Below the pieces are notes generated by a model. That model did not search any database and had not been told where the DNA came from. It saw only the letters and a program-made list of their open reading frames with translations. Below are positions 44,709 to 64,000 of a DNA stretch of 64,000 nt, piece after piece. A program made the position numbers and the translations under genes. Every line of letters begins with the position of its first letter. The first letter of the stretch is position 1. Source of the DNA: Alphaproteobacteria bacterium (GTDB lineage Bacteria > Pseudomonadota > Alphaproteobacteria > JASGCL01); assembly GCA_965262605.1 (NCBI GenBank), contig CBDHFN010000001.1:80566-144565 (forward strand). Direction: 5' to 3'.

Positions 44709-44715
44709 AAAATGG

Positions 44716-45928: not shown

Positions 45929-45929
45929 G

Positions 45930-46310
45930 CTATTTCACAATTTTTAAGGCGGTAATATTTTGCACTAATTCTTTAAGTTGCGTGTGATGAATGGCAATAT
46001 CGCGCGAAATTTGCACCAAAGGTTCGGCTTTTTTATGGTCGTCAAGGGCTTCAATCGCCAGCTTGAATAAATTGCCCAAACGGGCAATATCCGCGTTGGT
46101 TTTAAACAAAGCGCGGGCAAAATCGCGATAAACCAGCAAATCCGCGTTGGGCGTTGGCATGTTCGCGCCCAAAAATAACCGCCGAATTAATTCTGCGCGC
46201 GAAATTCGGTATGCCTGTGCCAAGTCCGAAACATGCCCAAATTCGCGTTGGCTTAGCTTGATGGCAAATTTGCGCGATTTCTTTAATTCGTTGCTTAGCA
46301 AGGCTTTCAT
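45930..46310 (-). CDS. mobC: MobC-family relaxosome accessory protein
   Basis: 126 aa, immediately upstream of and coupled to the relaxase gene. The pattern RKFAIKLSQREFGHVSDLAQAYRISRAELIRRL is typical of MobC. Confidence 0.6.
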   Translation of the reverse strand: MKALLSNELKKSRKFAIKLSQREFGHVSDLAQAYRISRAELIRRLFLGANMPTPNADLLVYRDFARALFKTNADIARLGNLFKLAIEALDDHKKAEPLVQISRDIAIHHTQLKELVQNITALKIVK

Positions 46311-47395
46311 TACATTCTTACGCTTAATGGTTTTTCTAAAATATCGGCTATCATCACGATTTTTGGGGTTAAATCGGGCTTGGGCATATTAATAACATTA
46401 AACAAAGGCTCTTGATTGCGGGCTTCAAGACTTGCCACGGCAAGCGGTTCGCGAATGGCTTCGGTATTGCGCACCACGGGCTTTGCCTTTAATTCTAATT
46501 CGGGGCGAAGTTCGGGTTGAATGACCCATTTTGTGATTTTATCGGCATCGCGGACGGCTTCAAAAATTTCTTTGGGCTTGTCTTGCAAGATTTTAATCCA
46601 GCTTTTGATATAGGCTTGATGATTTTCAGGATAATGCCCCAAACCCGTTTTTACGCCGACCATGAACGAAGAAATTTCGGCGCGAAGTTCTTCCTTGGCG
46701 TAAGCAACCGACCCCTTGACGCTGTGCAAAAATGGGCGATTAAGCCGCGATTCATGCCCCGTGGCATGTCCAATTTCATGCAAAGCCGTGGCGTAATATT
46801 CATATTGCGAATGAAATTGTGATTTTTCGGGCAGAATAATTTTATCGCTATGGGGCATATAATACGCGCCTTTGGACGCGATATGCTCAATCGCGATGTT
46901 CGTGTCCGCCATTAATTTTTCAATATTTTCAATGTCGTTAAAGCTTGGCATTTTGGGTTTGGGCGCGATGTAAGCCTCTAATCCCGTTGTTTGTTCGGCA
47001 TTAAATACGCGGTAAATCTTTATCATCGGTTGTCGGAAATTGAAGCGCACGACTTGGTTTGTGCCGTCTTCTTCGGTCATTACCTTGAATCCATGCTCTT
47101 TAAATACGATAATTTGCTCGCTAGTTGCGCCTTTGTTTATCGTTGCGCCTAGTTCTTTGGCTTGGTTAAAAGTCAGCCAGCGCGGGTCTTTATACCCCGC
47201 CCGCAAGGCTTTCATGCTTAGTTTCAGCGAATTCATGCCATTATACGCAACATTTGTTTTGGCATTTTTGGGCAAGTTCGGTGCTTCGCCTGCTTCCCAT
47301 CCTTGCGTCCAAGGTGCTGTATTTTCTTGCAAAGCTTGAATAAAGCTTTGTGCGACTTCGTTCGTGAAGGCTTCGTTTATGGCATTATTCGTCAT
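46310..47395 (-). CDS. ardC: ArdC-type antirestriction protein (ssDNA-binding N-domain + zinc metalloprotease domain)
   Basis: The N-domain pattern is APW...NVAYNGMNSLKL...DPRWLTFNQAKELGA. The protease motif is ALHEIGHATGH. I set the start at ATG 47395 (MTNNAINEAF). Confidence 0.8.
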   Translation of the reverse strand: MTNNAINEAFTNEVAQSFIQALQENTAPWTQGWEAGEAPNLPKNAKTNVAYNGMNSLKLSMKALRAGYKDPRWLTFNQAKELGATINKGATSEQIIVFKEHGFKVMTEEDGTNQVVRFNFRQPMIKIYRVFNAEQTTGLEAYIAPKPKMPSFNDIENIEKLMADTNIAIEHIASKGAYYMPHSDKIILPEKSQFHSQYEYYATALHEIGHATGHESRLNRPFLHSVKGSVAYAKEELRAEISSFMVGVKTGLGHYPENHQAYIKSWIKILQDKPKEIFEAVRDADKITKWVIQPELRPELELKAKPVVRNTEAIREPLAVASLEARNQEPLFNVINMPKPDLTPKIVMIADILEKPLSVRM

Positions 47396-47549
47396 TTTTG
47401 TTGCTTTCAAAATCGGTGAATGCGTCCAAGCCCATATATTCGGCAAGCTCCTTGCTTACGATGATTTCTTGCCCGCAAGGCGCGGTTTGTATGGTTTTAT
47501 CAAGTAATTTTGCTTGGGTTTCTAAAACGGGTAAATACTTATCATTCAT
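47385..47549 (-). CDS. small hypothetical ORF (54 aa), first gene of the ardC-mobC-relaxase operon
   Basis: Hand-translated as MNDKYLPVLETQAKLLDKTIQTAPCGQEIIVSKELAEYMGLDAFTDFESNKNDE. AAGGAA RBS. Its stop overlaps the ardC start. It is below the length cutoff of the ORF track. Confidence 0.3.
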   Translation of the reverse strand: MNDKYLPVLETQAKLLDKTIQTAPCGQEIIVSKELAEYMGLDAFTDFESNKNDE

Positions 47550-47915: not shown

Positions 47916-49649
47916 ATGAAAAACATGAATAAAGTATTTGAACGAAAAATTTGGGGGTTTGTTTTTTCAGTCGCCATAATGCTAGCTGTTTTTTATTTGG
48001 GATTTTATGATTTTTTTTATAATTTCTGGAATTTATGGAATATTGGAGATTATTTAAAGTTTATACTTGGTTGTAGCATAGGCGTATTGACATTGATGTT
48101 TTTCATTAATTTTTGTATTGCGTCATTTGTTTTAGGTAATAATTTGAATGTTAATTTAATTAAAGAAAATAAATATCAATTCAAGCTTGATATTTTAAAC
48201 GATACTTATGCTGAATTTAAAACTTCTTGGCATAATGCCAAGAGTGAAAATGCTGATGGAAGCACAAATTATAAAGAATTTAAAACCGAAACGGCATCAA
48301 ATTACTTCCGATATGATAATTTGATTGGCAATTATTGTCATGCTGATTTTTTTAAACATATACCTGGTGTTTTAACAGGTATGGGGATTATTGGCACTTT
48401 TAACGGTTTAATTCACGGACTACACGCCTTTCAAAAAAATGGTACTAATCAAGATGAATTGCAATCTGGCTTGTTCAAGCTACTTGATGCCGTAAGCGAA
48501 GCATTTATATTATCGGCAATCGCTATTGGCATTGCGATATTAATTACCTTAATTGAAAAAATGGTTGTATCGGTTTTACAAAGAAAATTAGAAAATTTTA
48601 ATTATGAAATTGATAAAAAAATTCATTCCAAAACCAGTGAAGATTACTTGCATGCTTTGGTTGAATCCAACGAAAAATCGCAAACACAATTGACACATTT
48701 AAAAGAAAATTTTATTAATGATTTAAAACCCATTTTTGAGGCGCAAACTCAAGCTTTCGCTCAAATAATAACTGATGGATTTGCTGATGCAATTGGCAAA
48801 ATAGGCAAAATTGATATAAGTAAAGAAGCAGATAGCGCATTACAAGATATTTTGAAAAAGATTGCTGATGCCCAAACTTTAATGTTTGAAAATTTAGAAA
48901 ACACAACCAATAAATTAGGGGGTAATGCAATTGATTTAAGCGATAAATTAACGCAAATTTCCGAATCTCACGATACAAATTACAATGAGTTAAAAGACGC
49001 CTTATTAGCTATCATTATCGCCAATGGTAAAATTCAAGAAAACTTAAATAATAAAGTTGAAGAATTGGGCGCAGGTATTGTGAAATTTTATGAAATTATT
49101 AATGCTATGACGGGCTTAGGAACAGAATTAATCCAATCAAGCGAAAAACTAATTAATGCAAGCACAATTTTTGACCAAGCAGCAATTAATATTAATCAAT
49201 CATCTGAAAATATAGCCAAATCATCTGAGGAAAGCAGTCAATCTTTAGCAACAATGACAAATGACATTAATAATGCACTTGGCGTTATTAGTGAAATTTC
49301 TCAAAGATTTTCTGAAGTGCAAAAAAATTATGATGATTATTTATCAAAAATTAATAATATTTTAATAGATTCCCACCAAACCTATAGCAAACAGCTTAAT
49401 GAAACTATCACGGAAAACAATGCAGTATTAAAAGATTCACTTCAAGATATAGTTAACAAATTTGCCAATTTAAATGAAAATTTGAATGAAGCCATTGAAA
49501 ATTTAATTGATAAATTACCAAATAATGCTTTATTACAAGAATCGCTTGCTGATAATATAGCTAAAAAGTTTGCCAAGATAAATTTAAATGAAAATATTAA
49601 TGACGCTATTAAAAGCATAATTGACAAATTGCCAAACAATAAAAGTTAA
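47916..49649 (+). CDS. zorA: ZorA-like MotA/ExbB-family proton-channel protein with long coiled-coil tail
   Basis: 577 aa with N-terminal TM helices. The MotA/TolQ/ExbB signature is IPGVLTGMGIIGTFNGLIHGL. A ~330-aa helical tail follows. The next gene is MotB-like. Confidence 0.7.
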   Translation: MKNMNKVFERKIWGFVFSVAIMLAVFYLGFYDFFYNFWNLWNIGDYLKFILGCSIGVLTLMFFINFCIASFVLGNNLNVNLIKENKYQFKLDILNDTYAEFKTSWHNAKSENADGSTNYKEFKTETASNYFRYDNLIGNYCHADFFKHIPGVLTGMGIIGTFNGLIHGLHAFQKNGTNQDELQSGLFKLLDAVSEAFILSAIAIGIAILITLIEKMVVSVLQRKLENFNYEIDKKIHSKTSEDYLHALVESNEKSQTQLTHLKENFINDLKPIFEAQTQAFAQIITDGFADAIGKIGKIDISKEADSALQDILKKIADAQTLMFENLENTTNKLGGNAIDLSDKLTQISESHDTNYNELKDALLAIIIANGKIQENLNNKVEELGAGIVKFYEIINAMTGLGTELIQSSEKLINASTIFDQAAININQSSENIAKSSEESSQSLATMTNDINNALGVISEISQRFSEVQKNYDDYLSKINNILIDSHQTYSKQLNETITENNAVLKDSLQDIVNKFANLNENLNEAIENLIDKLPNNALLQESLADNIAKKFAKINLNENINDAIKSIIDKLPNNKS

Positions 49650-49654
49650 AATTA

Positions 49655-50365
49655 ATGCGAAGAAAAAATTCTCAATCCCATATTGACCACGAAGAAAAAC
49701 CATTTTGGATAAGTTTTTCGGATATGATGACGGCAGTCATGGTGCTATTTTTGGTGGTAATGTGCGCTACAATTGCCTTAATTGCCAAACCAAACAAAGA
49801 TGGCGGTAACACCCAAGCGGATAAAGAAGCAAATTTTCTTACATGCGCAGGGGAATTAATTAATATTTATAATGCAAAATTTCCTAATAATGAACAAATT
49901 AAATTAACAAAAAATAAAATTCAATTTGGCACAAAAGCCCAATTTAAGACGAGTGATTTTCAATTAAGCACCGAACAAGCTAGTTATTTAACCAATTTTG
50001 TCAAAGAAGTCATATTTCCGATTCAAACAAAATGCGACAAAGCACAAGAAAAATTATTATCAAAAATCATAAGTGAAGGATATGCAAGCAGAACGGGCGA
50101 TTATTTAACCAATTTAACTTTAAGCCTTAATCGTGGAAAATCCGTAATTTGTGCATTGCTTAACGATGCTAATCTTGACATTAGCCTAGATGAAAAAAAG
50201 CAAGTCGCAAAATATTTTAGTGTTGGCGGTTATTCCTTTAATGATTCAAAAGCATCAGATTATGAATCGCAAAGAGTAGAATTAACACTTGAATTTTATA
50301 AGGAAAACCAGCCAAGAAATAATAATTATGATTATGTAAAGGAAATGTTTGGAAAATGTCAATAG
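49655..50365 (+). CDS. zorB: ZorB-like MotB/OmpA-family stator protein
   Basis: The MotB-type N-terminus is PFWISFSDMMTAVMVLFLVVM, with a conserved Asp at the TM start. The C-terminus is OmpA-like (GYASRTGDYLTNLTLSLNRGKSV). Confidence 0.7.
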   Translation: MRRKNSQSHIDHEEKPFWISFSDMMTAVMVLFLVVMCATIALIAKPNKDGGNTQADKEANFLTCAGELINIYNAKFPNNEQIKLTKNKIQFGTKAQFKTSDFQLSTEQASYLTNFVKEVIFPIQTKCDKAQEKLLSKIISEGYASRTGDYLTNLTLSLNRGKSVICALLNDANLDISLDEKKQVAKYFSVGGYSFNDSKASDYESQRVELTLEFYKENQPRNNNYDYVKEMFGKCQ

Positions 50366-51927
50366 AAAATTTATCACAAGAATTACATAAAATTTCTATT
50401 GCGCCCATTATAATTCCCGCGATTAAGTTAGCAATACCAAAATATTTGAATAATATTGAGAATGTTAAAATTACTACACCCGAAGAAATAAAAAAAATAT
50501 TGAAATTTTTTTTTGATAATGAAGTATTTAAGACGAATAATATGAAAAATATTCGCGTTATTGCCGAAAATTTAGATGATAATGAATTTAATTTATTAGA
50601 AAACGAACAAAAATTACAAAGATATTTTGAAATATCTGATGAATATTTTAAAATGGAAAATAATAATAAAATTCCAAACCGAATTTATATAGGATGGGTT
50701 GCGTGCTTTTTACGGCATACTAAGTATCATCAGTTATTACAGGCGCAATTAAATAAAAAATTTAATTATACGAACATAAAACCTACAACTAGAATGCAGA
50801 ATTTTCAGTCAAATTATCAGATTTTACTTGATTCTAACTCATTTAATAATTTTGATAAAAATACCATTAATAATTTTGAATTTAATGAAATTAAACAAAT
50901 TTGGCGATTACCCAATAATTCGTGGTGGGCTTGTAATTTTATACTTAAATATATTGATTATAATATTTTAAGTAATAATGATACTAAAGAGATTATAGAA
51001 AAATATCTTATATTCAAAGATTTTTTTATTGAAAATAATATATACAAGAAAGGCTTAGAGAAAATTATAATTCGCCTTAGCAAAGAGGCAGATTACCCTA
51101 AATATGAACCATTATTAAAAGACGCAATTCAAGAATTTGGCAATCCAATTTCACCAAAAAATGCGCATTATTGGCAGTTTTCAGACCAAGGAAAAGGGTT
51201 AATCAAAAAATGGTTTATATCCGAAGGCATTCAAAAATTTTTCACCCTACTTGCTGATGATAGTGGCGACCCAAGGCGCGCGAGATTTTGGCAAGAATGG
51301 GTAGATTATATTGATGATATTCAGTTTTTTATGGGTAAAAACACTGCATTGCGTGGTGACTCAGAAATTAAAAGAATAATAAAAGATTATGGTGAATATA
51401 ATTTACGCGACAAAACCAATGCCTTTGCGATGGTAATTGGCAATATTAAAATCATAGAATTTAGTGATTCAGGAAATGCTGCTTATATATATGACAAAAA
51501 TTTTGAAACAACGAATCAAAAATTTTTTAAAATTGATGAATTAAAGCGTAAAGGTGCAGCTAAAGACAGAATATGCCATAATATTGATTGGGAAAAAACA
51601 GCAAACGAAATTATTATAAAATTTACTCAATTAAACGCAAAAAAAACTATAAATATGATTAATGCCAATAAACCAATGCAACCAATTTCACAAAATTTTT
51701 CCTATAATTCAACCCCTCAAATCACCGAATCAAAAATTATTAGCTTAAATAAAATAAATGATTCAGGTGTTGATATTCTTGATAACATTGAAATACCTAA
51801 ACCAATTGAAAATTCAAATTCCCAAAAATCATGGCAATTAATCGAAGCTGATAATGATATTCTTGAAGTTAAAAAGCCACCCCACCAATTGCAAAATATT
51901 TGGCAAAGAATTTGGAGCAAAAATTAA
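50356..51927 (+). CDS. zorC: ZorC-like protein
   Basis: 523 aa. Assigned by position, size and operon context between zorB and the SNF2-nuclease gene. I did not recognise a catalytic motif. Confidence 0.55.
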   Translation: MSIENLSQELHKISIAPIIIPAIKLAIPKYLNNIENVKITTPEEIKKILKFFFDNEVFKTNNMKNIRVIAENLDDNEFNLLENEQKLQRYFEISDEYFKMENNNKIPNRIYIGWVACFLRHTKYHQLLQAQLNKKFNYTNIKPTTRMQNFQSNYQILLDSNSFNNFDKNTINNFEFNEIKQIWRLPNNSWWACNFILKYIDYNILSNNDTKEIIEKYLIFKDFFIENNIYKKGLEKIIIRLSKEADYPKYEPLLKDAIQEFGNPISPKNAHYWQFSDQGKGLIKKWFISEGIQKFFTLLADDSGDPRRARFWQEWVDYIDDIQFFMGKNTALRGDSEIKRIIKDYGEYNLRDKTNAFAMVIGNIKIIEFSDSGNAAYIYDKNFETTNQKFFKIDELKRKGAAKDRICHNIDWEKTANEIIIKFTQLNAKKTINMINANKPMQPISQNFSYNSTPQITESKIISLNKINDSGVDILDNIEIPKPIENSNSQKSWQLIEADNDILEVKKPPHQLQNIWQRIWSKN

Positions 51928-54900
51928 TGATATTATCTTGGATTAAAAAACTTAATGAAAACGAAGAAACCGATATTTTTTGTAAATACGCCAAAAATGG
52001 AATAATTTGGGGCGATTATAATCAAATCGGCAACCATAAATGTATTTTATCAGATATTTCGGGTTTAGCAAAAATATTTGAATTTGATATAATTAATAAA
52101 GATTATAATTGTTCATGGGAAAAATTTTATCAAATATTTAATGAAAATGATAAATTATTTCAAAGCAACCTTGAAAATTTAGGCATTAAATTTTTACCTG
52201 ATTTGAATTGCCGATTATATAGTGATGGATATTTAATTAATTATGATTTAAAATCGGGTCAAAATAATATTAGTTTAAGTGATTTAGATATAAATTTTGT
52301 TAGTTTTAAAGCTTATAATTATATTTTACCTTCAAATATTACCAAGATACTAAAATTAATTAAAAAACAAAGAGAAACACAAGATAATAATTTAATAAAA
52401 GAATTTTTTGGGCAAATTCGCAAAATCGCGCTTGAATCCAATTTAACCATCAGTGATTATATTAAAAACACAATTATTGTAACGCCCGAAAATTTAAATC
52501 TTAAACATACCGAACAAAGCAATGAACGATATGAAATTAAAATTGACATTGATTTTCAAGATTGCCCCGCAAATTTTATGCAAAATTTTGACAAATATCC
52601 CAATGTTGAAAAAAAATATGTCATCGGTGAAAATTCAAAACTTACAGAGGTGATTATTAGTGATTCCGTGCAACCAATTTTGCGTAAAATCAAACAATAT
52701 CCTAAACGCATTTTGAAAGATAATGACGCAATTAAGTTTATAGAAAATCCCAAGGCATTTTTAGATGATAATGAAAATATTATAAACGAAAATAACGAAA
52801 ATTTTACAAGAAAAATGCCAAATTTATTTGAAATTGAATATAATTCATTAAACAAAAAATTATATATTAATATTAATCATAACCAAGAAATTATTGAATT
52901 TAATGATAATGATGAAATAAAAAAATTTCAATCCTTGTTGTCTGGTGCAAATAATAAAAATATTCATTTCGTTGAATGGCATAATTATAAATTATATTTT
53001 GGAGAAAATTTTGAAAAACATAATACCCGTATAAATGAATATTTATCACAAATTAATTCCGATGAATTTTTGAAAGGTTTAAGCGATAGGATTTATGGGA
53101 TTGGTCAACAAAAAAAGGAATTTTCACCCTACATTTCATTATTACAAGAAAAAAAAGGTTGGTTGCCCGAAAATATTGTTAAGCATTTTTCGGTAATAAA
53201 TAATCTAACGGGCGAGATAGAGCAGGTTAAATGTGATGATAAGGCAATTGAACAAATTGAAAATTCTGTAAATAAAGCCCAAGAAAATCAACAGCAAATT
53301 CATGTCAAAATCAATAACAATGATTATGTTATTCCTATTCAAGATGCTAAAACCATGACCGAAGTTTTTAATCAATCAGTGGATAAACTAAAAAAATCAT
53401 TTGAAAAAAATAAAACTCCTAAAAACGAATTGCTATTTTATCAACAAATAATCGCCGAAGATTATATAAAAAATCGTAATGTAGCATTGATGAATAACGA
53501 TATGCCTATAAGATTACCTGATAATCGCAAAGCATATACCGAACTAAAAGACCACCAAATAGACGGAGTGCGATTTTTACAACATTTATATTCTTGTGCG
53601 CCCAAAGATTGCAAAGGGGCATTATTAGCCGATGATATGGGGTTGGGTAAAACTTTACAAACATTAATTTTTATATTTGAATTATTAGAATCACAAAAGG
53701 CTAACAAAATATTGATTGTTGCACCAGTTTCATTATTAGAAAATTGGCAAAATGAAATTGATAAATTTTTTAATTTTTCAAATGATAAAATTTTACAACT
53801 TTATGATAAAAATATTACCCATATTAAAAATAAATTTTCATTGGATATTAATAATTTAAAACAAAAAACTTTAAAAAATGATTGGCATGATGGGTTTGAC
53901 ATCGTATTAACAACATATGAAACAATGCGAGATTATGAATACAGCCTTGCAAAAATTAATTGGTCAGTCATTATTTGCGATGAGGCTCAAAAAATAAAAA
54001 ACCCATCAAGTGGCTTTACAAAATCAATTAAAAAATTAAAATATAAATTTGCCATTGCTTGCACAGGCACGCCAATTGAAAACCATTTAGCCGAATTATG
54101 GTCAATATTTGATTTTATTCAACCTGGTTTATTAGGTTCACTAAATAGCTTTGGCAAAAAATACAAAAGCCCAATAGAAAGAAAAACAGACCAAGAAGAA
54201 AAAGCAATTGAAGAATTGCAAAAAATCATTGAACCCCAATTTTTAAGACGCATGAAAGAAGATGTAGCAAATTTACCAAAGAAAGTTATTGATTTTGAAT
54301 GTCAAGATTTAAAAATTTCAGATAAACAACATAATTTAATCGTTAAAGTTGCCAATCAAATCTCACCCGAACGAATGTTAGAATTTCTACATTATTACAA
54401 AAAAATATGCGCCTTTCCATTTGAATTTAGTTCAAGTTTAATTGAAAATAATATTCACAATGATGATTGGCTGAAAGATTCCCCAAAATTAAAGTGGTTA
54501 TTAGAAAAATTATCAACAATAAAATCAAAGCAAGAAAAAGTCATAATATTTACATCCGAAAAAGATATACAATTAAGACTGCATACTGCTATTACCAAAA
54601 AATTTAGTGATTTGGAAATTAATATTGTTAATGGTGATACTCCTGTTCAAGATGAAATCCATAGCAGGCAAAAGAAAATTGATGATTTTCAAAATAAGCA
54701 TGGTTTTAATGTTATTATATTGTCGCCTCTTTCATGCGGGGCAGGCTTTAATATTCAAAAAGCAAATCATGTTGTGCATTTTACGCGTCATTGGAATCCT
54801 GCCAAGGAAGACCAAGCAACCGATAGGGCTTATAGAATAGGGCAAGATAAAGAGGTTTTTGTATATTACCCACAAATTAAATCTCAATATTTTGATACTT

Positions 54901-55469
54901 TTGATAAAAAATTAAATGATTTGCTGAATGCTAAGCGTGAATTAGCAACAAATATCTATAATGGATATGGCGGTTCAATAAGCGAACAAGATTTTTTGCG
55001 TGGCATTAATGATTTGCTTCCCAAAGAAGTAAATGAAATAAATTGGCAAAATATTGATGAACAATTTCTTAAATCAATTAATTCCAAAGCATTTGTTAAG
55101 TTAATTAAAATAATTATTGAAAAACAAAATCCTAAAAACTTAACGGAATTAAGAGATGGTGCTGGTGATGAAGGTATTGATATTATTTCATTTAACAATC
55201 AAAATTTAGAAATTATTTGTGTTCAATGCAAATCAACAACAAGTCAAAATAAATTAAGTTATGATTCAATTCGTGAGGTTTTTTATGGCGCAGATAATTA
55301 CAAAAAATCGCATCCTGAATATAAATTAAAATTAATTTGCGCAACGAATTTTGAATTTAACCAAAATGCAATTAATGAAGCGCAGAACAAAGATGTAGAG
55401 TTATGGGATTTTGATATTTTGAAAGAATTGATTAAAAAACACAAAGTTAAAGAATATGAATTATTTTAA
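51927..55469 (+). CDS. zorD: ZorD-like SNF2-family helicase with C-terminal Mrr-like nuclease domain
   Basis: SNF2 motifs are LADDMGLGKTLQT, VICDEAQKIKN, CTGTPIENHLAELWSIFDF and HWNPAKEDQATDRAYRIGQ. The C-terminal restriction-endonuclease-like core is GDEGIDIISF...ICVQCKS. I set the start at ATG 51927 (TAATG overlap with zorC). Confidence 0.75.
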   Translation: MILSWIKKLNENEETDIFCKYAKNGIIWGDYNQIGNHKCILSDISGLAKIFEFDIINKDYNCSWEKFYQIFNENDKLFQSNLENLGIKFLPDLNCRLYSDGYLINYDLKSGQNNISLSDLDINFVSFKAYNYILPSNITKILKLIKKQRETQDNNLIKEFFGQIRKIALESNLTISDYIKNTIIVTPENLNLKHTEQSNERYEIKIDIDFQDCPANFMQNFDKYPNVEKKYVIGENSKLTEVIISDSVQPILRKIKQYPKRILKDNDAIKFIENPKAFLDDNENIINENNENFTRKMPNLFEIEYNSLNKKLYININHNQEIIEFNDNDEIKKFQSLLSGANNKNIHFVEWHNYKLYFGENFEKHNTRINEYLSQINSDEFLKGLSDRIYGIGQQKKEFSPYISLLQEKKGWLPENIVKHFSVINNLTGEIEQVKCDDKAIEQIENSVNKAQENQQQIHVKINNNDYVIPIQDAKTMTEVFNQSVDKLKKSFEKNKTPKNELLFYQQIIAEDYIKNRNVALMNNDMPIRLPDNRKAYTELKDHQIDGVRFLQHLYSCAPKDCKGALLADDMGLGKTLQTLIFIFELLESQKANKILIVAPVSLLENWQNEIDKFFNFSNDKILQLYDKNITHIKNKFSLDINNLKQKTLKNDWHDGFDIVLTTYETMRDYEYSLAKINWSVIICDEAQKIKNPSSGFTKSIKKLKYKFAIACTGTPIENHLAELWSIFDFIQPGLLGSLNSFGKKYKSPIERKTDQEEKAIEELQKIIEPQFLRRMKEDVANLPKKVIDFECQDLKISDKQHNLIVKVANQISPERMLEFLHYYKKICAFPFEFSSSLIENNIHNDDWLKDSPKLKWLLEKLSTIKSKQEKVIIFTSEKDIQLRLHTAITKKFSDLEINIVNGDTPVQDEIHSRQKKIDDFQNKHGFNVIILSPLSCGAGFNIQKANHVVHFTRHWNPAKEDQATDRAYRIGQDKEVFVYYPQIKSQYFDTFDKKLNDLLNAKRELATNIYNGYGGSISEQDFLRGINDLLPKEVNEINWQNIDEQFLKSINSKAFVKLIKIIIEKQNPKNLTELRDGAGDEGIDIISFNNQNLEIICVQCKSTTSQNKLSYDSIREVFYGADNYKKSHPEYKLKLICATNFEFNQNAINEAQNKDVELWDFDILKELIKKHKVKEYELF

Positions 55470-57371
55470 AACTATTTCAGATTTTTTTTCATAAAAATTT
55501 CCGTTAAATTCTTGGGCAAGGGCGGGGATTCCGCGGGATTTTGCGTAATCGTTGTAATCGGTTAAGCCTTGAATTAATTCGCTTTTGCCAAAATTTGGGG
55601 TGCGGACTTCGGCATTGATTAATTGCGATGCTTTGGTGGCGCACGCGATACCGACATTTACTTCGCGCTTGTGGTCGTTGTCGGCGGCAATGATGATATG
55701 GGCGGTCGGGAATTGGGCGCGGATATTTTGCGCAACGGGGGCAAGATTCCCCGAATCAAAGGCGACAACGACGGGGATTTTGGTTGCTTCGTAAAGCGAA
55801 ATGGCGGTTGCGATGCCTTCGGCAATGATAATTTGCGGATAATCGCGGTATTTCAGCGCGGTTTTGGTATTTTTATCATCAATAATGGTAAAATTGCCGT
55901 GTTTTTCGCCGTCTTTTAAGAAAATTTTCGTGCCGTTGGGCTTGATAAATTGCACGGAACGCACGATGCCGTCAAGATTAACAATTGGAATAAGCAGATT
56001 TTTATTGTCAATCATGTTGCCGTGTTTGTCTTGATAAGGTGGCTGGACTTTTAAGCCGTGGTTGTGGGTGATGGCTTTGGCGGTTAAATATTCATGGTTG
56101 TGGGCGAAGGTATTTTTGGGATTCGCGATAATGGCAAAGGCTTGTTTGGCGACTTTATCATGAATTATTTGGCGGTTTTGGGATTGTTTAGCTTGCAATT
56201 CGGCGTAATTTGGGTTGATAATTTGCCGTTCGTGCGCGGGCTTTGATTGCCCTGTGGCGATGAATTTTGCATTAATAATGCCAAGCTTGAAATTAGTAAT
56301 TAAGCCATTGACGCGCCCGCCCGAATGAAGCAAATACGCCCCTGATTTTTCACTGCCTTTATCGCCCGCGATGGCGACCCTGTGCCATTGCCCATTATCG
56401 TGTAATTCATTTATATCTAAGCCTTTGGTTTTAGCAAATTCGCGAAATTCTTCAAGTGCTAATTCGGTAATTTCATTGGCGGTTTTGGGGTAATGTTGCG
56501 CAAATCGGCTAAGGGCTATATCGTGATTGTCATTTTGATTGGTTAAGAAATAAGAATTACGCGCCGAATCAAAATTTGCGCCCAAGCTTCTTGCTTCACG
56601 GCGATGTTCAAACGGCACATTTATATAGATTTTCCACGGCGAAACCATGGCAATTTTATCTTCCATCACTTGATCCTTGTCTTTATAGTTTGTTGGTTGT
56701 TCCCAAGCCAAGACGGCATTTTGCCAATGTTTGTCGGTGTAAAGCATGGCTTTGGCAATTAATTTGCCGAAATTATAAAATTTTCGTAAAATTAAGGGAT
56801 TTTTCTTAATTGCGAAGGGTAATTGCGTCAATTTTGGCATGGTGAATGGTTGCTTAAAGACGCGTGCCATACTAAATTGGGCGAGGATTGCCCGAAAATT
56901 TTGCTCTTTGGCTAATTCGGTGCCTGCGATTGATTTTTGGACATGGTCATTATCAAATTTAAGAATTTCTTGCAAAGATGGTATGGGTGTTGTTTGCCAA
57001 GCAGGCGGGGATTGGATATAAGCGTCCAGCCCGATAATATCTTGCCCATTGAAAACATGCCCTAAAATCAAGGTTGGCTTGGCAAGTTTATTGCCGTTTT
57101 TATCAAAAATGCGCCAATATTCCACTTGGACGGGTTCGGCGTTTTCGTTAATACTATAACCTGCTTTAATGGCTTGGGATTGGGTAAGCCAGCGCGGGTC
57201 ATTCATGGTGCGGGCATCCATGCTTAACATAAAATCATTAAAACCAGCATAAGCGTTATTACTAACGGGATTAAAAGGTTGCGGTGGCAGGGTGTCATTA
57301 TGCAGCATGGAATTGCCGTGATTAAATAAATTGACGAAATTTTGCGATTGAGTGGCGATATTTTTAAACAT
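55461..57371 (-). CDS. ArdC-N-like ssDNA-binding domain / Toprim-domain protein (conjugative primase-like)
   Basis: The N-terminus parallels the ArdC N-domain (NNAYAGFNDFMLSMDARTMNDPRWLTQSQAIKAGY). The middle module is KIYINVPFEHRREARSLGANFDSARNSYFL. The C-terminal Toprim motifs are IIIAEGIATAISL and IIIAADNDHK. Confidence 0.65.
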   Translation of the reverse strand: MFKNIATQSQNFVNLFNHGNSMLHNDTLPPQPFNPVSNNAYAGFNDFMLSMDARTMNDPRWLTQSQAIKAGYSINENAEPVQVEYWRIFDKNGNKLAKPTLILGHVFNGQDIIGLDAYIQSPPAWQTTPIPSLQEILKFDNDHVQKSIAGTELAKEQNFRAILAQFSMARVFKQPFTMPKLTQLPFAIKKNPLILRKFYNFGKLIAKAMLYTDKHWQNAVLAWEQPTNYKDKDQVMEDKIAMVSPWKIYINVPFEHRREARSLGANFDSARNSYFLTNQNDNHDIALSRFAQHYPKTANEITELALEEFREFAKTKGLDINELHDNGQWHRVAIAGDKGSEKSGAYLLHSGGRVNGLITNFKLGIINAKFIATGQSKPAHERQIINPNYAELQAKQSQNRQIIHDKVAKQAFAIIANPKNTFAHNHEYLTAKAITHNHGLKVQPPYQDKHGNMIDNKNLLIPIVNLDGIVRSVQFIKPNGTKIFLKDGEKHGNFTIIDDKNTKTALKYRDYPQIIIAEGIATAISLYEATKIPVVVAFDSGNLAPVAQNIRAQFPTAHIIIAADNDHKREVNVGIACATKASQLINAEVRTPNFGKSELIQGLTDYNDYAKSRGIPALAQEFNGNFYEKKSEIVLK

Positions 57372-57544: not shown

Positions 57545-57711
57545 GAGAGTTGAATATCTGGATAATCAAGGGCTAGTTCCGCGAAGATTCCGCCCAATTT
57601 ATCGGCAAATTTTAAGGTTATTTCGCATTCTTGCCCTTGGTTAAGATATTCATCTAAGATTTCAGATTCTAAGGTAAAATCATTATTATTGGGTTTTTCT
57701 AAGTTATTCAT
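57529..57711 (-). CDS. small acidic hypothetical protein
   Basis: 60-aa ORF coupled to virD4 (ATGA overlap). Its last five codons and its stop codon are supplied by the repeat element. Confidence 0.3.
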   Translation of the reverse strand: MNNLEKPNNNDFTLESEILDEYLNQGQECEITLKFADKLGGIFAELALDYPDIQLSSLLH

Positions 57712-59453
57712 GGTGTATCCTTGGTTGTGATGGGACAGAGTGGGTGAAAATAAATAGGGATTTTGGAGCGGGCATTGAGGATTTTATTTTTATAAAAAAA
57801 TGGTTGTTTGGCAAGGATAGGCGCGGAGCGGGCAATCATGATAAGCATTTGCCCAAGCGGTAATTGTTGAATTTGCGAAGAATTTTTAAGGGGGACTTTA
57901 TGGGATTGATAAGAGATAGTGTAAGCGGTGCCATTTTTGCTTGTGGAGGAGGATGTATTTTTAAGTTGCACGGTCATATTGCCTAGTCGTTTTTCAATAT
58001 ATTCGGCGGTATTAACGGTGTTGGGTGCAAGCGCAATTTGGATATGGCAATTGGCGGTGATGGATTCGTCTTTGGAATATTTTGCGTATAATTGATTTAA
58101 ATCTTGGCAGATAATATATAATTTCAAGCCATAGCCTGCAACGAAGCTAATTGCATTTTCTAAGACGAGGATTTTGCCAATACTTGGGAATTCGTCCAAG
58201 AGAAGTAATAATTTATATTTATAGGATTTATCTTGTTCGCCCGCTGTAAAATTCATACGGGAGGTTCGTTTGGCAACCAGCATAGTCATGAATATTCTAA
58301 TGAGTGGTTTAAGTCTGTCAATATCAGGCGGAGCAATAATAAGATAGCACGAGACGGGCATATCGCCGTCCATTAATTCATCAATAGTCCAATCGGATGT
58401 GGCGGTATTTTTGGCGATGGTGGGGTCAACGAACAAGCCTAATTTGACGCTTCCCGAAGAATGCACGCCCGAGCGTTCGGCTTCGGCTTTGCTTAATAAC
58501 ACGCCAGCCCCACGGCGAATATTATCATTAATGAAGGGGTTTTTATGGTCAAATTTCATCATATTATTGAGTATTTTGATTAACCCGCCGCCCGATTCAA
58601 GCGAGGAATCGGCATTAATATAATTATAGACATCGGCTAAGGAGGGCATGATATTTTTTTCCAATTGCCAGCGATGGCAACAATGCAAGATGGCGGTAGT
58701 CATCCAAATCCAGCCACTATTAGACCAATAATCATTGCCTAAGCCTTTGCCGTCAGTATCCATAATTATCATGGCGATATTTTGGACATCAGAAAATTCA
58801 TATTCAGTGCCAAAACGAATTTCTGCAAGGGGGTTAAATTTATGGCATTCATTGGGGTTAGTTGGTTCAAATTTAATGATTTTTTGCCCCATTTTTGCGC
58901 GAAATCCCGCGGTTAGATTGTAATTTTCAGCTTTAATATCAAGGACTAAGACGGAGTTTTCAAGCCAAGTCATCAAGGTAGGGATAATCAAGGAGACGCC
59001 TTTACCCATGCGGGTTGGTGCAAAGCAAATTATATGTTCGGCGCCGTTATGGCAGATTAATTGGGTTTTGCTAAAAAAATATTTTTTATAGCCACCAATT
59101 ACCGCGCCGTCAGCTTGATTTTTAAATAATTCATTGGGGTATTTGACAAGATTTAAGCCTGCTTTCATAACATCATTAAAGTTAGCCCAGCGTGAGTCGC
59201 CGTGGACATTTTGATGGTTGATGATATTGGAGTTAAAGGTCATGATAAGGCAATAGGCAAGGGGCAGGAGCAATAAAGCCAAGGGGTATATAATAAAAGC
59301 GGGCAGGTTTTTTTCTTTGGCAAGATAATAAAACAAATAAATAATATTTTTGGGGAATTTAAAATCAAATCCGTAATGCAACCAAATAAAATAAATACAG
59401 ATGAGGGCAAGAAATAAAATGAGGCAAGCGATTAGTTTATGAATATTAGTCAT
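57708..59453 (-). CDS. virD4: type IV secretion coupling protein VirD4/TraG
   Basis: 581 aa with two N-terminal TM helices. Walker A context APTRMGKGVSLIIPT and Walker B context KLLLLLDEFPSIG. Confidence 0.85.
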   Translation of the reverse strand: MTNIHKLIACLILFLALICIYFIWLHYGFDFKFPKNIIYLFYYLAKEKNLPAFIIYPLALLLLPLAYCLIMTFNSNIINHQNVHGDSRWANFNDVMKAGLNLVKYPNELFKNQADGAVIGGYKKYFFSKTQLICHNGAEHIICFAPTRMGKGVSLIIPTLMTWLENSVLVLDIKAENYNLTAGFRAKMGQKIIKFEPTNPNECHKFNPLAEIRFGTEYEFSDVQNIAMIIMDTDGKGLGNDYWSNSGWIWMTTAILHCCHRWQLEKNIMPSLADVYNYINADSSLESGGGLIKILNNMMKFDHKNPFINDNIRRGAGVLLSKAEAERSGVHSSGSVKLGLFVDPTIAKNTATSDWTIDELMDGDMPVSCYLIIAPPDIDRLKPLIRIFMTMLVAKRTSRMNFTAGEQDKSYKYKLLLLLDEFPSIGKILVLENAISFVAGYGLKLYIICQDLNQLYAKYSKDESITANCHIQIALAPNTVNTAEYIEKRLGNMTVQLKNTSSSTSKNGTAYTISYQSHKVPLKNSSQIQQLPLGQMLIMIARSAPILAKQPFFYKNKILNARSKIPIYFHPLCPITTKDTP

Positions 59454-60399
59454 GGAACACGCCGTTTTGCATAATATATTGTTGGGTTTTGGGGTTAAAT
59501 AAATCGCTTATTTGTCTAAATCCATTATCATTGCGTTTAATTTGAATGATTAAATCGGTTAATTGGTTAATATTTTGGGCGATATTATCAATTTTATGTT
59601 CGCCCCATTGTAGATTCATGGCGAATTTAAGGGGGACTTGTTTAGGGGATTCGGCGTGAATAGTGCACATAAAGCCTTTATTTCCAGCGTTTAAGGAGTT
59701 AATGGCGCAAAAACTATTGGCAGTGCTGATTTCACCAAATATGATATTATCGGGGGTAATGCGGTTAATATGGTTGCTTAAAACTTCCCAAGATAGTAAG
59801 CCGTTATGATGAAATTGTGCGCCACGCCCAGCGATTAAGCCTGTGCCATTCCAAAATCTTGTAATATCTACTTCGGGGGTGTCTTCAACGGATACGACAC
59901 GGCGTGAATCGGGTAATAACGATAATAATTTATTAAGCAAGGTGGTTTTGCCCGTGTTGGTTGCGCCAGCAATAACGATATTATCTTGGGCTTGAATGCG
60001 GGTGGTGATAAATGCTTGGGTTTTGGGGTTAATGCCTAATTCTTGCCAAGATGGTTCAAATTTATGTTTGCATCTGATAGCAAGGCTTATGCCATGCACG
60101 GCGGACGCGCCGAAGGCGGCTTCAAAGCGATGGTTGTAAAATGGCAAGACGCAAGAAATTTGCGGTGATTCATTATTAAAAATTAAACCATTCATATTGC
60201 TTAAAATTTTGCATAAATTTTTAAGATTATCAATGGACAGGTTTTTGTCTTGAATTTCCAATAATCCCGACCCGCGCGTATCTGTAATAACAATAAAAGG
60301 TTTATTAATGCGAAATTCGGTAATTTGCACATTAGAAATATATTGAAATAAATCGTTAAGGCGAATGCGCAAGATGGGATTTAAGGAATCGTAAGACAT
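59446..60399 (-). CDS. virB11: type IV secretion ATPase VirB11
   Basis: Walker A is GATNTGKTTLLN. Length is typical of VirB11/TrbB. I set the start at ATG 60399 (MSYDSLNPIL), one nt after the upstream stop. The track start at 60432 overlaps the upstream gene. Confidence 0.85.
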   Translation of the reverse strand: MSYDSLNPILRIRLNDLFQYISNVQITEFRINKPFIVITDTRGSGLLEIQDKNLSIDNLKNLCKILSNMNGLIFNNESPQISCVLPFYNHRFEAAFGASAVHGISLAIRCKHKFEPSWQELGINPKTQAFITTRIQAQDNIVIAGATNTGKTTLLNKLLSLLPDSRRVVSVEDTPEVDITRFWNGTGLIAGRGAQFHHNGLLSWEVLSNHINRITPDNIIFGEISTANSFCAINSLNAGNKGFMCTIHAESPKQVPLKFAMNLQWGEHKIDNIAQNINQLTDLIIQIKRNDNGFRQISDLFNPKTQQYIMQNGVFHD

Positions 60400-60400: not shown

Positions 60401-63133
60401 TTAAAAGCCGTAAATAACTTGATTATCATCACGAAGCCACGCTTGCCCCAAGGTAATAGAGTAGGTATAAGGATTCATGCTTGGAGTTTGCGCACTATTA
60501 CAAGCGGCATATGTTGCCGAAGTGCCGTAAGCCCCATTACCATTGCTATCGCCACAACCCCAAGCAATGCCCCAATTGCTACCTATAGTAAATTTAGTCA
60601 AGGCGTTAATTGGAGATGATGCGATGGTTTGCCCCGATTTAACATAATTAAATTGGAATTTGCGATAAACCGAAGAGCCACTTGGCAATAAATCGGCACC
60701 CGAATTATTATTTGTCAAACTAACAATACCATTTTGCGAATTATAGCTTGCCGTGCCGTAAGGGTTGCTAACACTAATATTTTGGGAAATACACGCATAA
60801 ACAGAACGATTCGTGCCGTTGGTAATACCGCCCGCGACAAATTGCGAATTATCCCCGCGCTTATAGGTGGTTTGGACAAGTTGCGGGATATTTTTCGTGC
60901 AACCTTGGTAAGAATGGGTATTATTGGGCGCATCAATAATTTTTGCGGATATAATTTGATATGGTTGGGCAATCGCGCCCGACAATAAGAAATTATCTTT
61001 AATATTATACCGAATGCCATTTACTAAAATATAAACTTTATATAAGGGATAATTATTTAAGCTGGAATCTTGGAATTGCCATGATTGCAATTCATAATTA
61101 TGGTTATAGGTAATTTTATCATCGGCACAAGAGGTTAAATATTTAGGTTGATTATCAATTAAGAAATAAGTTCTGGTGCGCCCCGTGCTGAAGGAGCTAT
61201 TGAAATTATGAAGCCAAAGATTCATATCAATGCACCCGTCCATTGTGGATTGAATCATGGAATCAGTATCACTTGCCACGCATTGCGTAATATATTTTCG
61301 TGCGCCATTAAGCATATAGCCGTTGCGATAAAATACAATCACGGCATCGCCCAAGACATTTTTAGACACGGGGCATAATAAATTGCCCGAATCATTAAAT
61401 TTATATTGTTCGTGATTCCAAGCAAGCGTGGTATTTTGACACCCGCGCGCCACGAATTTTTGCCCATTAAAAATATACGATAAAGCTTCTTGTTGGAATG
61501 ATTTTTTTTGCGTGAAATCATCATAAACCGAACAAGGTTCGGTATCTTTGGTAATGGCAATATTCGGCGCGCTTGCGCTTATTTGGCAGGCTTGTAAATC
61601 ATGGCGGTTTCCGTCTAAATCAATATAATAAGTGGCGGATTTACGCCGAACGACATTAGCGTCATAATCCACCAGCACGGCGCAATTGGTAAAATCTTCA
61701 ACAATATTATATTTAATTTCGGTATCTTCGGCGCAAACATCGTTAATATTAGTTTTTTCGTTATTATTCGCCAAATAAAAATTTTTATATTTAGGAATGA
61801 TAAAATGATTAATATTATCGGTTTTAACGGCGCAATCGCTATAAGATTTATATATTTGATATTGAATTAAGGGGTCAGTATCGGCGCAAGGGGTTTGAGA
61901 AATAACTTTATTTTCAACTAATGCCCTTTTAGTGCTTTGTTTAATGGCTTGATTATTAATTAAATCAATACGAACGGCACAATTTGCGCTTACCTCATCA
62001 TAATTAATAATCGGGCAAGGCGCATAAACAAATTCTGCGCCTTGATAAGAATAGGTTTTTTTAAACCCGATGGCTTGACTTGGCGCAATAAAGCCCGCAT
62101 TAATAGCGCAAGCGGTGCTTGTCATTGGCACGGATTGCGCTGATTTAGCGCAAGGGGATATTTCAATCGGATTGCCGTTAATATCATTATAGTTTTTTTT
62201 GGATTTTATCCAAACTTTATTAAGGGCAATATCAATTTCAACCCCGCAAGCATTAAAATCTTCGGTGATTTTAAATGTTTTTTCATTGTCAATCGTACAT
62301 TCACCAACATCAATAAAAATACCCGCGCTGTTTAAATATCGCATTCTAAATCGCGCATTCGCGCCCGTGCCATTAAAAACATCCGAACAACTAATATAAT
62401 TTTTGCTAAGGGGATAAGAGACTTCGGAGTCTTTGCATGGTTCAACGCTAACTTCTTGGGCATCTTCAAGCGTGATTAATTTAGTTTGCACGATGGCTTT
62501 ATTTTGCGCAAAATCAATGCGGGTAATGCACCCGTCCGTTGTTTGTTTATAGGTCGTTTTTTTGGCTTGGCTAAGATTAATGGGGTCAAGAGGTTTAAAT
62601 TGCATGTCTTTATTGGGAGTATCAAGCCCGAATTCGCTTATTTTGCTATTTATTTGGGGTAAATCCGATTTTAAGCTTGCTTTGGCATCAGGGTTTAATA
62701 ATTCATTAATGATATTTTCAATTACAACCTTGGAAAATGGCAGTTTCACCGGCGAATTTTGGGTAAAATTCGTTTGTGAAACTTCACCCATTAAGGCATA
62801 ACCGCTTAAATCTTTGGCTTTATTGCTGGATTTCATGGAATTAAGGGTAATTTCAGATTTATTACCATCAATTTGCTTGATGGACGCATTAATTACCACT
62901 TTATCGCCGTTATTGATTTTATTTTTGATTTTTAAGTCAATGTTTTTAATATCTTTAGTAATGGGAACATCGCCAATGACTGGTGCAACTTCAATATTAT
63001 CATTATTATATTCTGCATTATTATCAGGGTTTAAATTTTGTGCATAGCTTATATTGTCTAAATTGTTTAAATAAAATAAGCCTATAAAGGCTAATGGCAA
63101 TATGATTGAAAATTTTAAGTATGTTTTTGGCAT
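60401..63133 (-). CDS. secreted 910-aa protein with at least 10 Cys-bounded ~30-35-aa repeat modules; unknown function, embedded in the T4SS operon
   Basis: Signal peptide FSIILPLAFIGLFYL...SYAQ with an AGGAAT RBS. Ten modules follow the pattern C-x(29-34)-C, for example CITRIDFAQNKAIVQTKLITLEDAQEVSVEPC, CAVRIDLINNQAIKQSTKRALVENKVISQTPC and CAVLVDYDANVVRRKSATYYIDLDGNRHDLQAC. The C-terminus ends ...VIYGF. Confidence 0.6.
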   Translation of the reverse strand: MPKTYLKFSIILPLAFIGLFYLNNLDNISYAQNLNPDNNAEYNNDNIEVAPVIGDVPITKDIKNIDLKIKNKINNGDKVVINASIKQIDGNKSEITLNSMKSSNKAKDLSGYALMGEVSQTNFTQNSPVKLPFSKVVIENIINELLNPDAKASLKSDLPQINSKISEFGLDTPNKDMQFKPLDPINLSQAKKTTYKQTTDGCITRIDFAQNKAIVQTKLITLEDAQEVSVEPCKDSEVSYPLSKNYISCSDVFNGTGANARFRMRYLNSAGIFIDVGECTIDNEKTFKITEDFNACGVEIDIALNKVWIKSKKNYNDINGNPIEISPCAKSAQSVPMTSTACAINAGFIAPSQAIGFKKTYSYQGAEFVYAPCPIINYDEVSANCAVRIDLINNQAIKQSTKRALVENKVISQTPCADTDPLIQYQIYKSYSDCAVKTDNINHFIIPKYKNFYLANNNEKTNINDVCAEDTEIKYNIVEDFTNCAVLVDYDANVVRRKSATYYIDLDGNRHDLQACQISASAPNIAITKDTEPCSVYDDFTQKKSFQQEALSYIFNGQKFVARGCQNTTLAWNHEQYKFNDSGNLLCPVSKNVLGDAVIVFYRNGYMLNGARKYITQCVASDTDSMIQSTMDGCIDMNLWLHNFNSSFSTGRTRTYFLIDNQPKYLTSCADDKITYNHNYELQSWQFQDSSLNNYPLYKVYILVNGIRYNIKDNFLLSGAIAQPYQIISAKIIDAPNNTHSYQGCTKNIPQLVQTTYKRGDNSQFVAGGITNGTNRSVYACISQNISVSNPYGTASYNSQNGIVSLTNNNSGADLLPSGSSVYRKFQFNYVKSGQTIASSPINALTKFTIGSNWGIAWGCGDSNGNGAYGTSATYAACNSAQTPSMNPYTYSITLGQAWLRDDNQVIYGF

Positions 63134-63164
63134 GGGATTCCTAGTTTTAATGGGGTTATTTGGG

Positions 63165-64000
63165 TTAATTAAGTGTGGATATAATCCAGTCTTTAGCTGG
63201 ACGAATTTGAATGCGCGTGCCTTTGGTTACGCGAATAATGGGTTTAATAGAAAGGCTTTCTTGCAAGGATTGCGCGGAAATTTCGCCGAATTTTTGCGAT
63301 AATTCCTTTGCGCCTTCGTCAAAAGCTTGATTAAGCGGGTTAGTTTGATTGCTTTGGTTGTTATTATTGGTAATGGTGGATTTATTGGCAATCGTAGCCG
63401 TGCCAATTCTTGTGCCAACGGATACGCCCGCTAATAAAAAAGCAAGCCCGTATTTTTCATAAAATCGGTTATCAACTTCGCCTGCAATGCCAACTGTGCC
63501 TTGGACATCGCCAACGACACTTTTAATTTGATTAATTTCGGCGCGGGTTTCACCCATTAAAATGCGGTTGCATTTTGATTCAAGGCGCGAAATGCCTTGC
63601 CCACCTGCAACTTCATATTCACAAATCATGCGCGATCCCTTAGGGATTAAGATATTGCGCCCGTGATAGCCATAAATATTTTGGGGTATTTGAATGATTA
63701 TCGTTCCCGCAATTTGGCTATTAATATTATTTTCTAAAATTCCCATGATATAGCGGTCTTGGGCAATGATATTATCGTTTGGCACAGGGGGGCTTGATAT
63801 ATCACTGGGCGCGGAATATTTAGCAGGCTTTAATATGGGTGCAACAGGCAAGGAATTATGGTTATTATCGGATTTTTGCACCATATCATCTTGCCATAAT
63901 TCAATATTTGCCAATCGTTCGGCGTAATAATTGGGTAAAATAACCTCAGGTTTATTGGGATAAACTTCAACAAGCCGTTCAATTTCACGGATTATTTCAA
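63165..64000 (-). CDS. virB10: VirB10/TrbI-family T4SS protein (5' end outside the window)
   Basis: The C-terminal TrbI/VirB10 domain contains IPKGSRMICEY and GDVQGTVGIAGEVDNRF, preceded by a Pro-rich segment. The reading frame stays open upstream of the TTG at 63914 to the window edge, so the gene is partial. Confidence 0.75.
   Translation of the reverse strand, partial: EIIREIERLVEVYPNKPEVILPNYYAERLANIELWQDDMVQKSDNNHNSLPVAPILKPAKYSAPSDISSPPVPNDNIIAQDRYIMGILENNINSQIAGTIIIQIPQNIYGYHGRNILIPKGSRMICEYEVAGGQGISRLESKCNRILMGETRAEINQIKSVVGDVQGTVGIAGEVDNRFYEKYGLAFLLAGVSVGTRIGTATIANKSTITNNNNQSNQTNPLNQAFDEGAKELSQKFGEISAQSLQESLSIKPIIRVTKGTRIQIRPAKDWIISTLN

Follow-up and report, generated by a model that had tools for sequence, protein, structure and literature searches.

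A cysteine-repeat protein encoded between virB10 and virB11 in a diverged P-type type IV secretion system: predicted architecture and possible role in cell contact

Donor-side contact proteins are known from several conjugation systems, among them TraN (F-type), PilV (I-type) and PrgB (Gram-positive). Accounts of P-type (VirB-like) conjugation systems usually include no dedicated protein of this kind. We analyzed a 64,000-nucleotide (nt) stretch of an alphaproteobacterial genome (GenBank assembly GCA_965262605.1, contig CBDHFN010000001.1, positions 80,566 to 144,565; hereafter the window, in whose coordinates features are given) that carries a P-type type IV secretion system (T4SS) with a large cysteine-repeat gene lying between virB10 and virB11. 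The gene occupies positions 60401-63133 of the minus strand and encodes a protein of 910 amino acids (aa), here called P0001, followed by a stop codon. To judge from its synteny, the gene is conserved in a rare P-type T4SS subtype that is distinct and diverged, and its product belongs to an unnamed family of predicted T4SS accessory proteins with an unusual architecture.

A parallel in design is Helicobacter CagY, a VirB10 homologue in which a VirB10-type domain is likewise combined with a long array of repeats, variable in number and with regularly spaced cysteines; CagY chains (6odi_b, 8cb2_DDD) are also among the top fold matches obtained with VIA-align. The order is reversed, however, P0001 having its VirB10-like domain first and the repeats after it. 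CagY repeats are described as helical, whereas those of P0001 are predicted to be beta. CagY replaces VirB10, while P0001 is additional to it, and CagY belongs to an effector translocator, while P0001 is encoded in conjugative elements. Rods built of G5 domains offer a further comparison. G5 domains are not known to have cysteine staples, and SasG and Aap are G5-domain rods of the Gram-positive surface, that is, of a different envelope with other anchoring; against the G5 domains of IgA1 protease and HP0197, P0001 scored at noise level, and it has no Pfam G5 match.

F-type TraN (PF06986), a mating-pair stabilization protein, is similar in that both proteins are large, cysteine-rich, signal-peptide-bearing and encoded within a transfer operon. 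In the sections of PMC9246713 drawn on here, TraN has 22 conserved cysteines, all predicted to lie in disulfides; P0001, with 24 cysteines and a hydrophobic N-terminus, shares the TraN trait of at least 20 cysteines in a transfer-operon protein that starts with a signal-peptide-like sequence. The same sections (PMC9246713) describe a conserved body with a variable part that decides recipient specificity, which is paralleled by the variable, recombining tail on the conserved core of P0001. TraN belongs to a mating-pair formation type F (MPF_F) system, whereas the cysteine-repeat protein is found in an MPF_T system. TraN is further described there as a compact N-terminal beta domain, a beta-sandwich tip and a C-terminal domain that folds back (PMC9246713), not as a variable-length modular rod of the kind predicted for the cysteine-repeat family, and within those sections a VirB10-like domain is not reported for it. 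Homology to TraN was considered and rejected: P0001 has no Pfam match to it at E≤0.1, and comparison of the family profile with F TraN gave an hhalign probability of 0.9%. By analogy, the cysteine-repeat protein may resemble TraN or the CagY repeat region in function; by descent it is not related to TraN.

P0001 also differs from VirB10/TrbI proteins. It gives no sequence signal to PF03743, and its N-terminal domain, at about 110 aa, is shorter than the VirB10 domain (about 190 aa). In VirB10 an inner-membrane anchor and a proline-rich spacer precede a C-terminal barrel, whereas P0001 has its barrel-like domain at the N-terminal side, directly after a signal peptide that looks cleavable. In addition, the window system encodes a complete, separate VirB10.

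Conservation of the gene between virB10 and virB11

The order virB10, cysteine-repeat gene, virB11 was found at all ten external loci examined, which are alpha- and gammaproteobacterial and comprise six annotated plasmids and four genome contigs (two of these contigs are cut at an end, leaving one neighbor visible in each). The same arrangement occurs at three of three loci in the genome that contains the window (2.6 Mb, 3 contigs); this genome has exactly three TrbI/VirB10 genes, each adjoining one paralogue of the cysteine-repeat gene. An earlier note on this DNA had described the gene as inserted between virB10 and virB11. It is not an insertion into a canonical operon: at the external and own-genome loci alike it is instead a conserved part of a minority subtype. 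The suggestion that the gene is dedicated to the T4SS is upheld by the same synteny together with the tight packing in the operon.

The packing can be read directly from the sequence. At 60401-63133 only the minus strand is open, the plus strand there being full of stops. A Shine-Dalgarno-like AGGA (63139-63142, minus strand) stands 5 nt ahead of the ATG at 63133, and the virB10 stop codon TAA lies at 63165-63167, leaving a gap of 31 nt. At the other end, the TAA of the cysteine-repeat gene (60401-60403) is separated by 1 nt from the ATG at 60399 with which the VirB11 frame begins (MSYDS...), upstream of which there is an alternative in-frame GTG at 60432. These measurements agree with the earlier note, which had placed a 910-aa open reading frame (ORF) tightly in the T4SS operon, starting 31 nt beyond the virB10 stop and ending 1 nt short of the likely virB11 start; the strand, unstated there, is minus. 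The flanking genes, all on the minus strand, are virB10/trbI (63165-64000, extending past the window edge; whole protein 363 aa; PF03743 TrbI/VirB10, E 1.5e-37) and, downstream of the cysteine-repeat gene, a virB11-type ATPase gene (59446-60399 from the ATG, with GTG 60432 as the alternative start; T2SSE 3.3e-16; TIGR02788 2e-38, the latter falling below the model cut-off), then a virD4/traG coupling protein gene (57708-59453; PF02534, 1.5e-93).

The subtype is sparsely distributed. In a 400-genome sample of the phylum, the cysteine-repeat protein was detected (E≤1e-10) in 2 of 108 TrbI-positive genomes, and it was present in 2 of 40 closer relatives. A tblastn search of PLSDB returned 13 plasmids, from Roseibium (5), Candidatus Paracaedimonas (3), Thalassospira (2), Magnetospirillum, Magnetospira and Microbulbifer (1 each). 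Carriers include plasmids of an amoeba symbiont as well as plasmids from marine and freshwater bacteria that live free. The five TrbI matches at loci with the cysteine-repeat gene, three of them in the genome that contains the window, score 129-147 bits; most others score 160-239, and several others about 129-132. The T4SS of the window as a whole is a diverged subtype.

Some further observations concern these loci, of which L006 is the transfer locus of the window extended beyond its edge, and L007 and L008 are the other two loci of the genome. VirB6, VirB2 and VirB3 of the window system are weakly recognizable (E 0.0016, 0.00025 and 0.0035), and for several of its operon genes neither Pfam nor NCBIfam has a family (85, 136, 157, 138, 263 and 149 aa; L006 9541-12781 and 15815-16264, minus strand). 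L007 and L008 each carry a small extra ORF between virB10 and the cysteine-repeat gene (12431-12805, minus strand, 124 aa, and 8633-8962, plus strand, 109 aa) that is absent from the window locus; the sole match of these ORFs is a sub-threshold NDC80_loop. A 0.9-Mb, 100% complete genome of the same class shows virB9, virB10 and the cysteine-repeat gene arranged in this way at a contig end.

An exhaustive HMMER search of 1.84 billion protein representatives matched 331 representative clusters with a threshold of E≤0.001; of these, 228 reached ≤1e-10 and 81 reached ≤1e-30. This search was needed to reveal the family, since a word-indexed search of 5.8 billion proteins returned the three own-genome paralogues only. 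Named members are all annotated as 'hypothetical protein', for example in Cohaesibacter celericrescens, and in the ESM Atlas P0001 and a more typical member, P0076, lie beside a single unnamed 'hypothetical protein' cluster (0.82 and 0.86). Pfam and NCBIfam hold no family for P0001, whose sole row (UvrC, E 0.078, 11 bits) is noise; of 25 family members scanned against Pfam, none had a match above cut-off, 24 being without any family and P0008 having two sub-cut-off matches. Searches of the PDB with sequence profiles of the whole family and of the ten modules found nothing below E 0.3. The earlier note had suggested that the protein may be novel; that it lacks a named family is supported by the Pfam and NCBIfam searches, and hhalign showed no relation to TraN or VirB10. 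In the literature, a full-text search covering sources other than subscription journals and supplements found no description of such a gene between virB10 and virB11. The exact phrase 'between virB10 and virB11' occurs in 2 papers, both unrelated as far as titles and abstracts tell, and a term search of a 2025 T4SS nomenclature review gave 0 occurrences of 'cysteine' or 'between virB10'.

Cysteine modules, predicted fold and the recombining 3' end

None of the 24 cysteines of P0001 precedes residue 202. Their successive distances are 31, 16, 30, 17, 32, 14, 31, 12, 31, 18, 33, 17, 32, 18, 31, 22, 31, 16 and 35, then 76, 36, 79 and 18; the spacing thus alternates between 30-35 and 12-22 residues for ten rounds, which define ten modules, the two cysteines of each pair enclosing 29-34 residues, with short linkers from one module to the next. 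Two further pairs follow (745/781 and 860/878). In six of the ten modules an aspartate stands five residues past the first cysteine (CITRID, CGVEID, CAVRID, CAVKTD, CAVLVD and CSVYDD, aligned by eye), and the modules appear, from their sequences, to be organized as a 4-module super-repeat. Mean pairwise identity among the modules is 19%, and Tandem Repeats Finder detected no DNA repeat with the module period in the gene, which together indicate that the modules are diverged and not the outcome of recent amplification. The earlier note had seen at least ten tandem modules with cysteines 29-34 residues apart, often opening C-A/I-V-x-x-D, one or two additional pairs on the C-terminal side, repeats diverged at the protein level, a signal peptide and an aromatic C-terminal residue. 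Our analysis bears this out, with ten modules, two extra pairs, the aspartate in six modules, a signal-peptide-like N-terminus (best 12-residue Kyte-Doolittle mean 2.46) and a sequence that ends in VIYGF.

The cysteine pattern is more than chance, as shown by its sharpness across the family: in 152 representatives, 3,267 gaps between cysteines form a sharply bimodal distribution that peaks at 16-18 and 31-32. Representatives range from about 560 to 2143 aa and carry 4-36 cysteine pairs; among 133 representatives of at least 600 aa, the mode is 7-8 pairs and length rises almost linearly with the number of pairs (r=0.95, slope 46.9 aa per pair, intercept 413 aa). Export features were counted in 130 representatives of at least 600 aa, leaving out the three own-genome paralogues. 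A hydrophobic N-terminal stretch is present in 122 of them and an even number of cysteines in 113, while a lipobox-like motif occurs in 3 and an aromatic C-terminal residue in 58. The host genome encodes one DsbB match and two DSBA-family matches. The view that P0001 is built for the extracytoplasmic space is supported by its signal-peptide-like N-terminus, its even cysteine count and these host genes.

P0001 can be divided into six parts, all encoded on the minus strand. Residues 1-31 (63041-63133) are signal-peptide-like, with a hydrophobic core, no lipobox cysteine and 'SYA' before Q32, after which we infer the cleavage site from sequence features. Residues 43-150 (62684-63007) form a compact beta domain at the N-terminal side that includes a single helix (135-146) and has a predicted fold like that of the C-terminal domains of VirB10, CagY and ComB10. 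[quoted passage not shown] The ten modules, about 47 aa long and with one closing cysteine pair apiece, span residues 196-679 (61097-62548; cysteine positions, alignment and an all-beta AlphaFold2 model). They are followed by a conserved C-proximal beta domain with Cys745-Cys781 (residues 680-781, 60791-61096; pLDDT >90), whose region contains the near-invariant residues H678, D689, Y725, C745, R759 and C781, and by a lineage-specific tail with Cys860 and Cys878 that ends in YGF (residues 782-910, 60404-60790; pLDDT <50). The tail consists to 60% of G/S/N/T/Y/A and has 7% charged residues. In 109 aligned family sequences the cysteines and a few other residues are invariant, and the conserved core is strongly constrained.

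These parts differ in how widely they are shared. Compared part by part with 160 stored proteins, the repeat region of P0001 matches all 160 and residues 670-790 match 113; residues 1-200 match 4, and residues 785-910 match only the three own-genome paralogues, apart from one spurious protein. In a profile comparison, the N-terminal domain of P0001 proved homologous to the N-domain usual in the family, although diverged from it (probability 82%, E 1.1e-5, 146 columns), and no relation was seen between the 129-residue tail and the tail that most members have (hhalign probability 0.6%).

The AlphaFold2 model of P0001 (109-row alignment) has a mean pLDDT of 71.5 and is all-beta except for helix 135-146. 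Block means are mostly above 90 at residues 45-150, 195-300 and 495-780, and confidence is low at 151-193, at 304-378 and in the tail (783-910). The model of P0076 (713 aa, 83 rows) is all-beta with a mean of 87.3, and is weak only in the signal-peptide region and the 165-211 linker. When both models were compared by VIA-align with 48,161 PDB representatives, the same seven chains took ranks 1-7 for each; every one is either a C-terminal domain of the VirB10 family or part of a T4SS core-complex entry: 7okn_A (inner ring of the F-type core complex), 3jqo_A (TraF of the pKM101 outer-membrane complex), 6gyb_c (VirB10 of the Xanthomonas core complex), 6odi_b (CagY), 7o3j_A (TrwE of the R388 O-layer), 2bhv_A (ComB10) and 8cb2_DDD (CagX-CagY complex). 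From these models the N-domain is probably, though not provably, like the VirB10 C-terminal domain in fold. Prediction of a complex between the N-domain and the C-terminal parts of VirB9 and VirB10 gave no usable answer (score 0.00) and weighs neither way on binding.

The three full-length paralogues of the genome are 65-66% identical over the alignment, and DNA identity among the three transfer loci is about 64-89%. One paralogue, P0002, has a 187-aa insertion with 8 more cysteines, equal to 4 extra modules, so that the co-resident copies have 10, 10 and 14 modules. We calculated nt identity per 30-codon block between the window copy (C1) and the other two (C2 and C3). The last 150 codons (60404-60853, minus strand) form a tract common to the three loci, in which C1 is 96-100% identical to C2 and 90-99% identical to C3; in the 180 codons upstream, C1 is 52-77% identical to the other copies. 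Identity switches at residue 761, near the start of the lineage-specific tail at 782. We read this tract, from its pattern of identity, as a probable product of gene conversion or tail exchange between co-resident elements. Elsewhere in the genome, away from the three T4SS loci, 50 residues at L005 (G000:C2:466287-466433) match modules 349-398 in isolation, with 53% identity and an internal TAA; it is probably the remnant of a fourth copy of the gene.

Proposed role and alternative explanations

We tentatively propose that the cysteine-repeat protein is a T4SS-docked, disulfide-stapled fiber with an exchangeable distal domain that contacts the recipient cell, a reading that we find plausible and hold with some reserve. 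The gene, packed as it is in the operon, would be co-transcribed with virB10 and virB11 and closely packed with them for translation. Its product, which carries the export and oxidation features given above, would be exported by Sec and its cysteine pairs oxidized, one disulfide clamping each beta module of about 47 aa. The VirB10-like N-domain might then dock the protein, either on the outer-membrane core complex or in it, and the flexible linker and the ten stapled modules would form a stiff rod whose reach is set by module number. The distal conserved domain and the lineage-specific tail could contact the recipient surface or another envelope partner; contact with a recipient would help to form or stabilize the mating pair, and the tail would be swapped by recombination between co-resident elements. 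An adhesin or mating-pair role is what we infer from this arrangement. A more explicit version, in which a mimic of the VirB10 barrel plugs into the core complex and carries an adhesive rod of 4-36 modules with a swapped tail that sets partner recognition, we regard as rather doubtful.

Several points weigh against the proposal. Foldseek searches of the PDB with both models gave only WD40/propeller rows (TM 0.03-0.08, root-mean-square deviation 42-65 A), and VirB10 was absent from the first 50 rows; we treated the propeller matches as an artefact of the many beta meanders. N-domain profiles compared with nine VirB10 C-terminal domains gave hhalign probabilities of 0.2-0.3%, and neither Pfam nor NCBIfam yields a TrbI match for P0001, with none in the 25 family members scanned. 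The P0001 and P0076 models partly share alignments and are not fully independent. Because of the Foldseek result, the profile comparisons and the shared alignments, we do not file P0001 in the VirB10 family. The tail, which would make the contact, is at its low pLDDT effectively unmodelled. The sharp step in identity is confined to comparisons with the window copy, since over the entire 3' third C2 matches C3 at 89-100% identity, and near-identity of the tails among the paralogues could equally reflect a common host-side partner instead of a recipient receptor. Surface exposure, partner binding and an effect on transfer are predictions of this reading. The main weakness is that the route of a disulfide-folded rod across the outer membrane is unexplained.

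One alternative is that the protein is purely periplasmic, an extra ring or stalk of the core complex, kept in place by its VirB10-like domain, in which the cysteine modules serve as a rigid spacer with no role in cell contact. The VirB10-like fold predicted for the N-domain would suit such a subunit, as would the occurrence of the gene at every locus of the subtype examined, the strong constraint on the conserved core, and the finding that no outer-membrane barrel or lipid anchor is evident (Pfam, lipobox check, P0076 model). We nevertheless consider this explanation unlikely, mainly because length and module number vary so widely: proteins of about 560-2143 aa fit poorly to a periplasm of fixed width, and even the three co-resident systems differ in module number. 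A lineage-specific, recombining tail would also be unusual for an internal structural part. The same VirB10-like docking domain points to a part of the machine and away from a secreted cargo, that is, a protein exported by Sec, folded with disulfides and released through the T4SS outer-membrane channel to act on other cells or a eukaryotic host. Such a route has a precedent in pertussis toxin, which leaves by the outer-membrane channel of the Ptl T4SS, and it would agree with the Sec-type N-terminus and the many disulfide-capable cysteines, with the small AT-rich genome (the window is 35% GC) and with the presence of family members on amoeba-symbiont plasmids. The loci are those of conjugation, however, the window carrying genes for a relaxase, a coupling protein and ArdC as well as a primase-like gene; the family also occurs on plasmids of the free-living bacteria mentioned above, and scans of P0001 and of 25 family members revealed a catalytic or toxin domain in none of them. 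We consider release as cargo quite improbable. We give still less weight to a surface-exclusion or barrier factor that stops mating between cells already carrying the element, an option raised in the earlier note. The homogenized tail of the three co-resident elements could serve recognition of 'self', but known exclusion proteins (TraT, TraS and the Eex/TrbK lipoproteins) are small, whereas P0001 has 910 aa and no lipobox, and the five-fold variation in length across the family further weakens the case.

If the protein is a docked fiber that contacts the recipient, it would be the first mating-pair contact or stabilization factor described for MPF_T systems and a free-standing counterpart of the CagY design. 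Were both its docking and its reach to a partner true, the family would offer a handle on how these elements choose recipients, a natural, length-tunable, disulfide-stapled beta rod, and a second, independent use of the combination of a VirB10-type domain with a cysteine-repeat array. At minimum, an unannotated conserved family that holds a fixed place in a P-type branch on plasmids of marine, freshwater and symbiotic Proteobacteria merits a name and a profile model in place of its 'hypothetical protein' labels.

The surrounding element

The stretch at 38270-39856 (minus strand), 41733-43316 (minus strand) and 44313-47446 includes two large serine recombinases (Resolvase, Recombinase and Zn_ribbon_recom domains), a PemK/MazF-type toxin, a MobA/VirD2 relaxase with TraI_middle, a NikA-like protein and a full ArdC (ArdcN and zincin peptidase). 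A second ArdcN protein, with DUF5710 and Toprim (636 aa), is encoded at 55461-57371. All these genes, taken with the T4SS, give the impression of a single conjugative element, either integrative or carried on a plasmid.

A four-gene cluster on the plus strand (47916-55469), placed after the relaxase module and ahead of the T4SS genes, is carried as cargo. It encodes a MotA_ExbB protein (577 aa), a MotB_plug protein (236 aa), an EH_Signature protein (523 aa) and an SNF2 helicase with an Mrr_cat nuclease (1189 aa), a make-up that we take to be that of a type I Zorya defence system.

A direct repeat of 1,346 bp (98.3% identity) is present at 40096-41440 and about 34 kb further on, outside the window (L006 18147-19492). 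Each copy carries a 390-aa ORF without a Pfam family, and the two bracket the whole transfer region; they may mark the ends of the element or represent a duplicated replication or regulatory gene.

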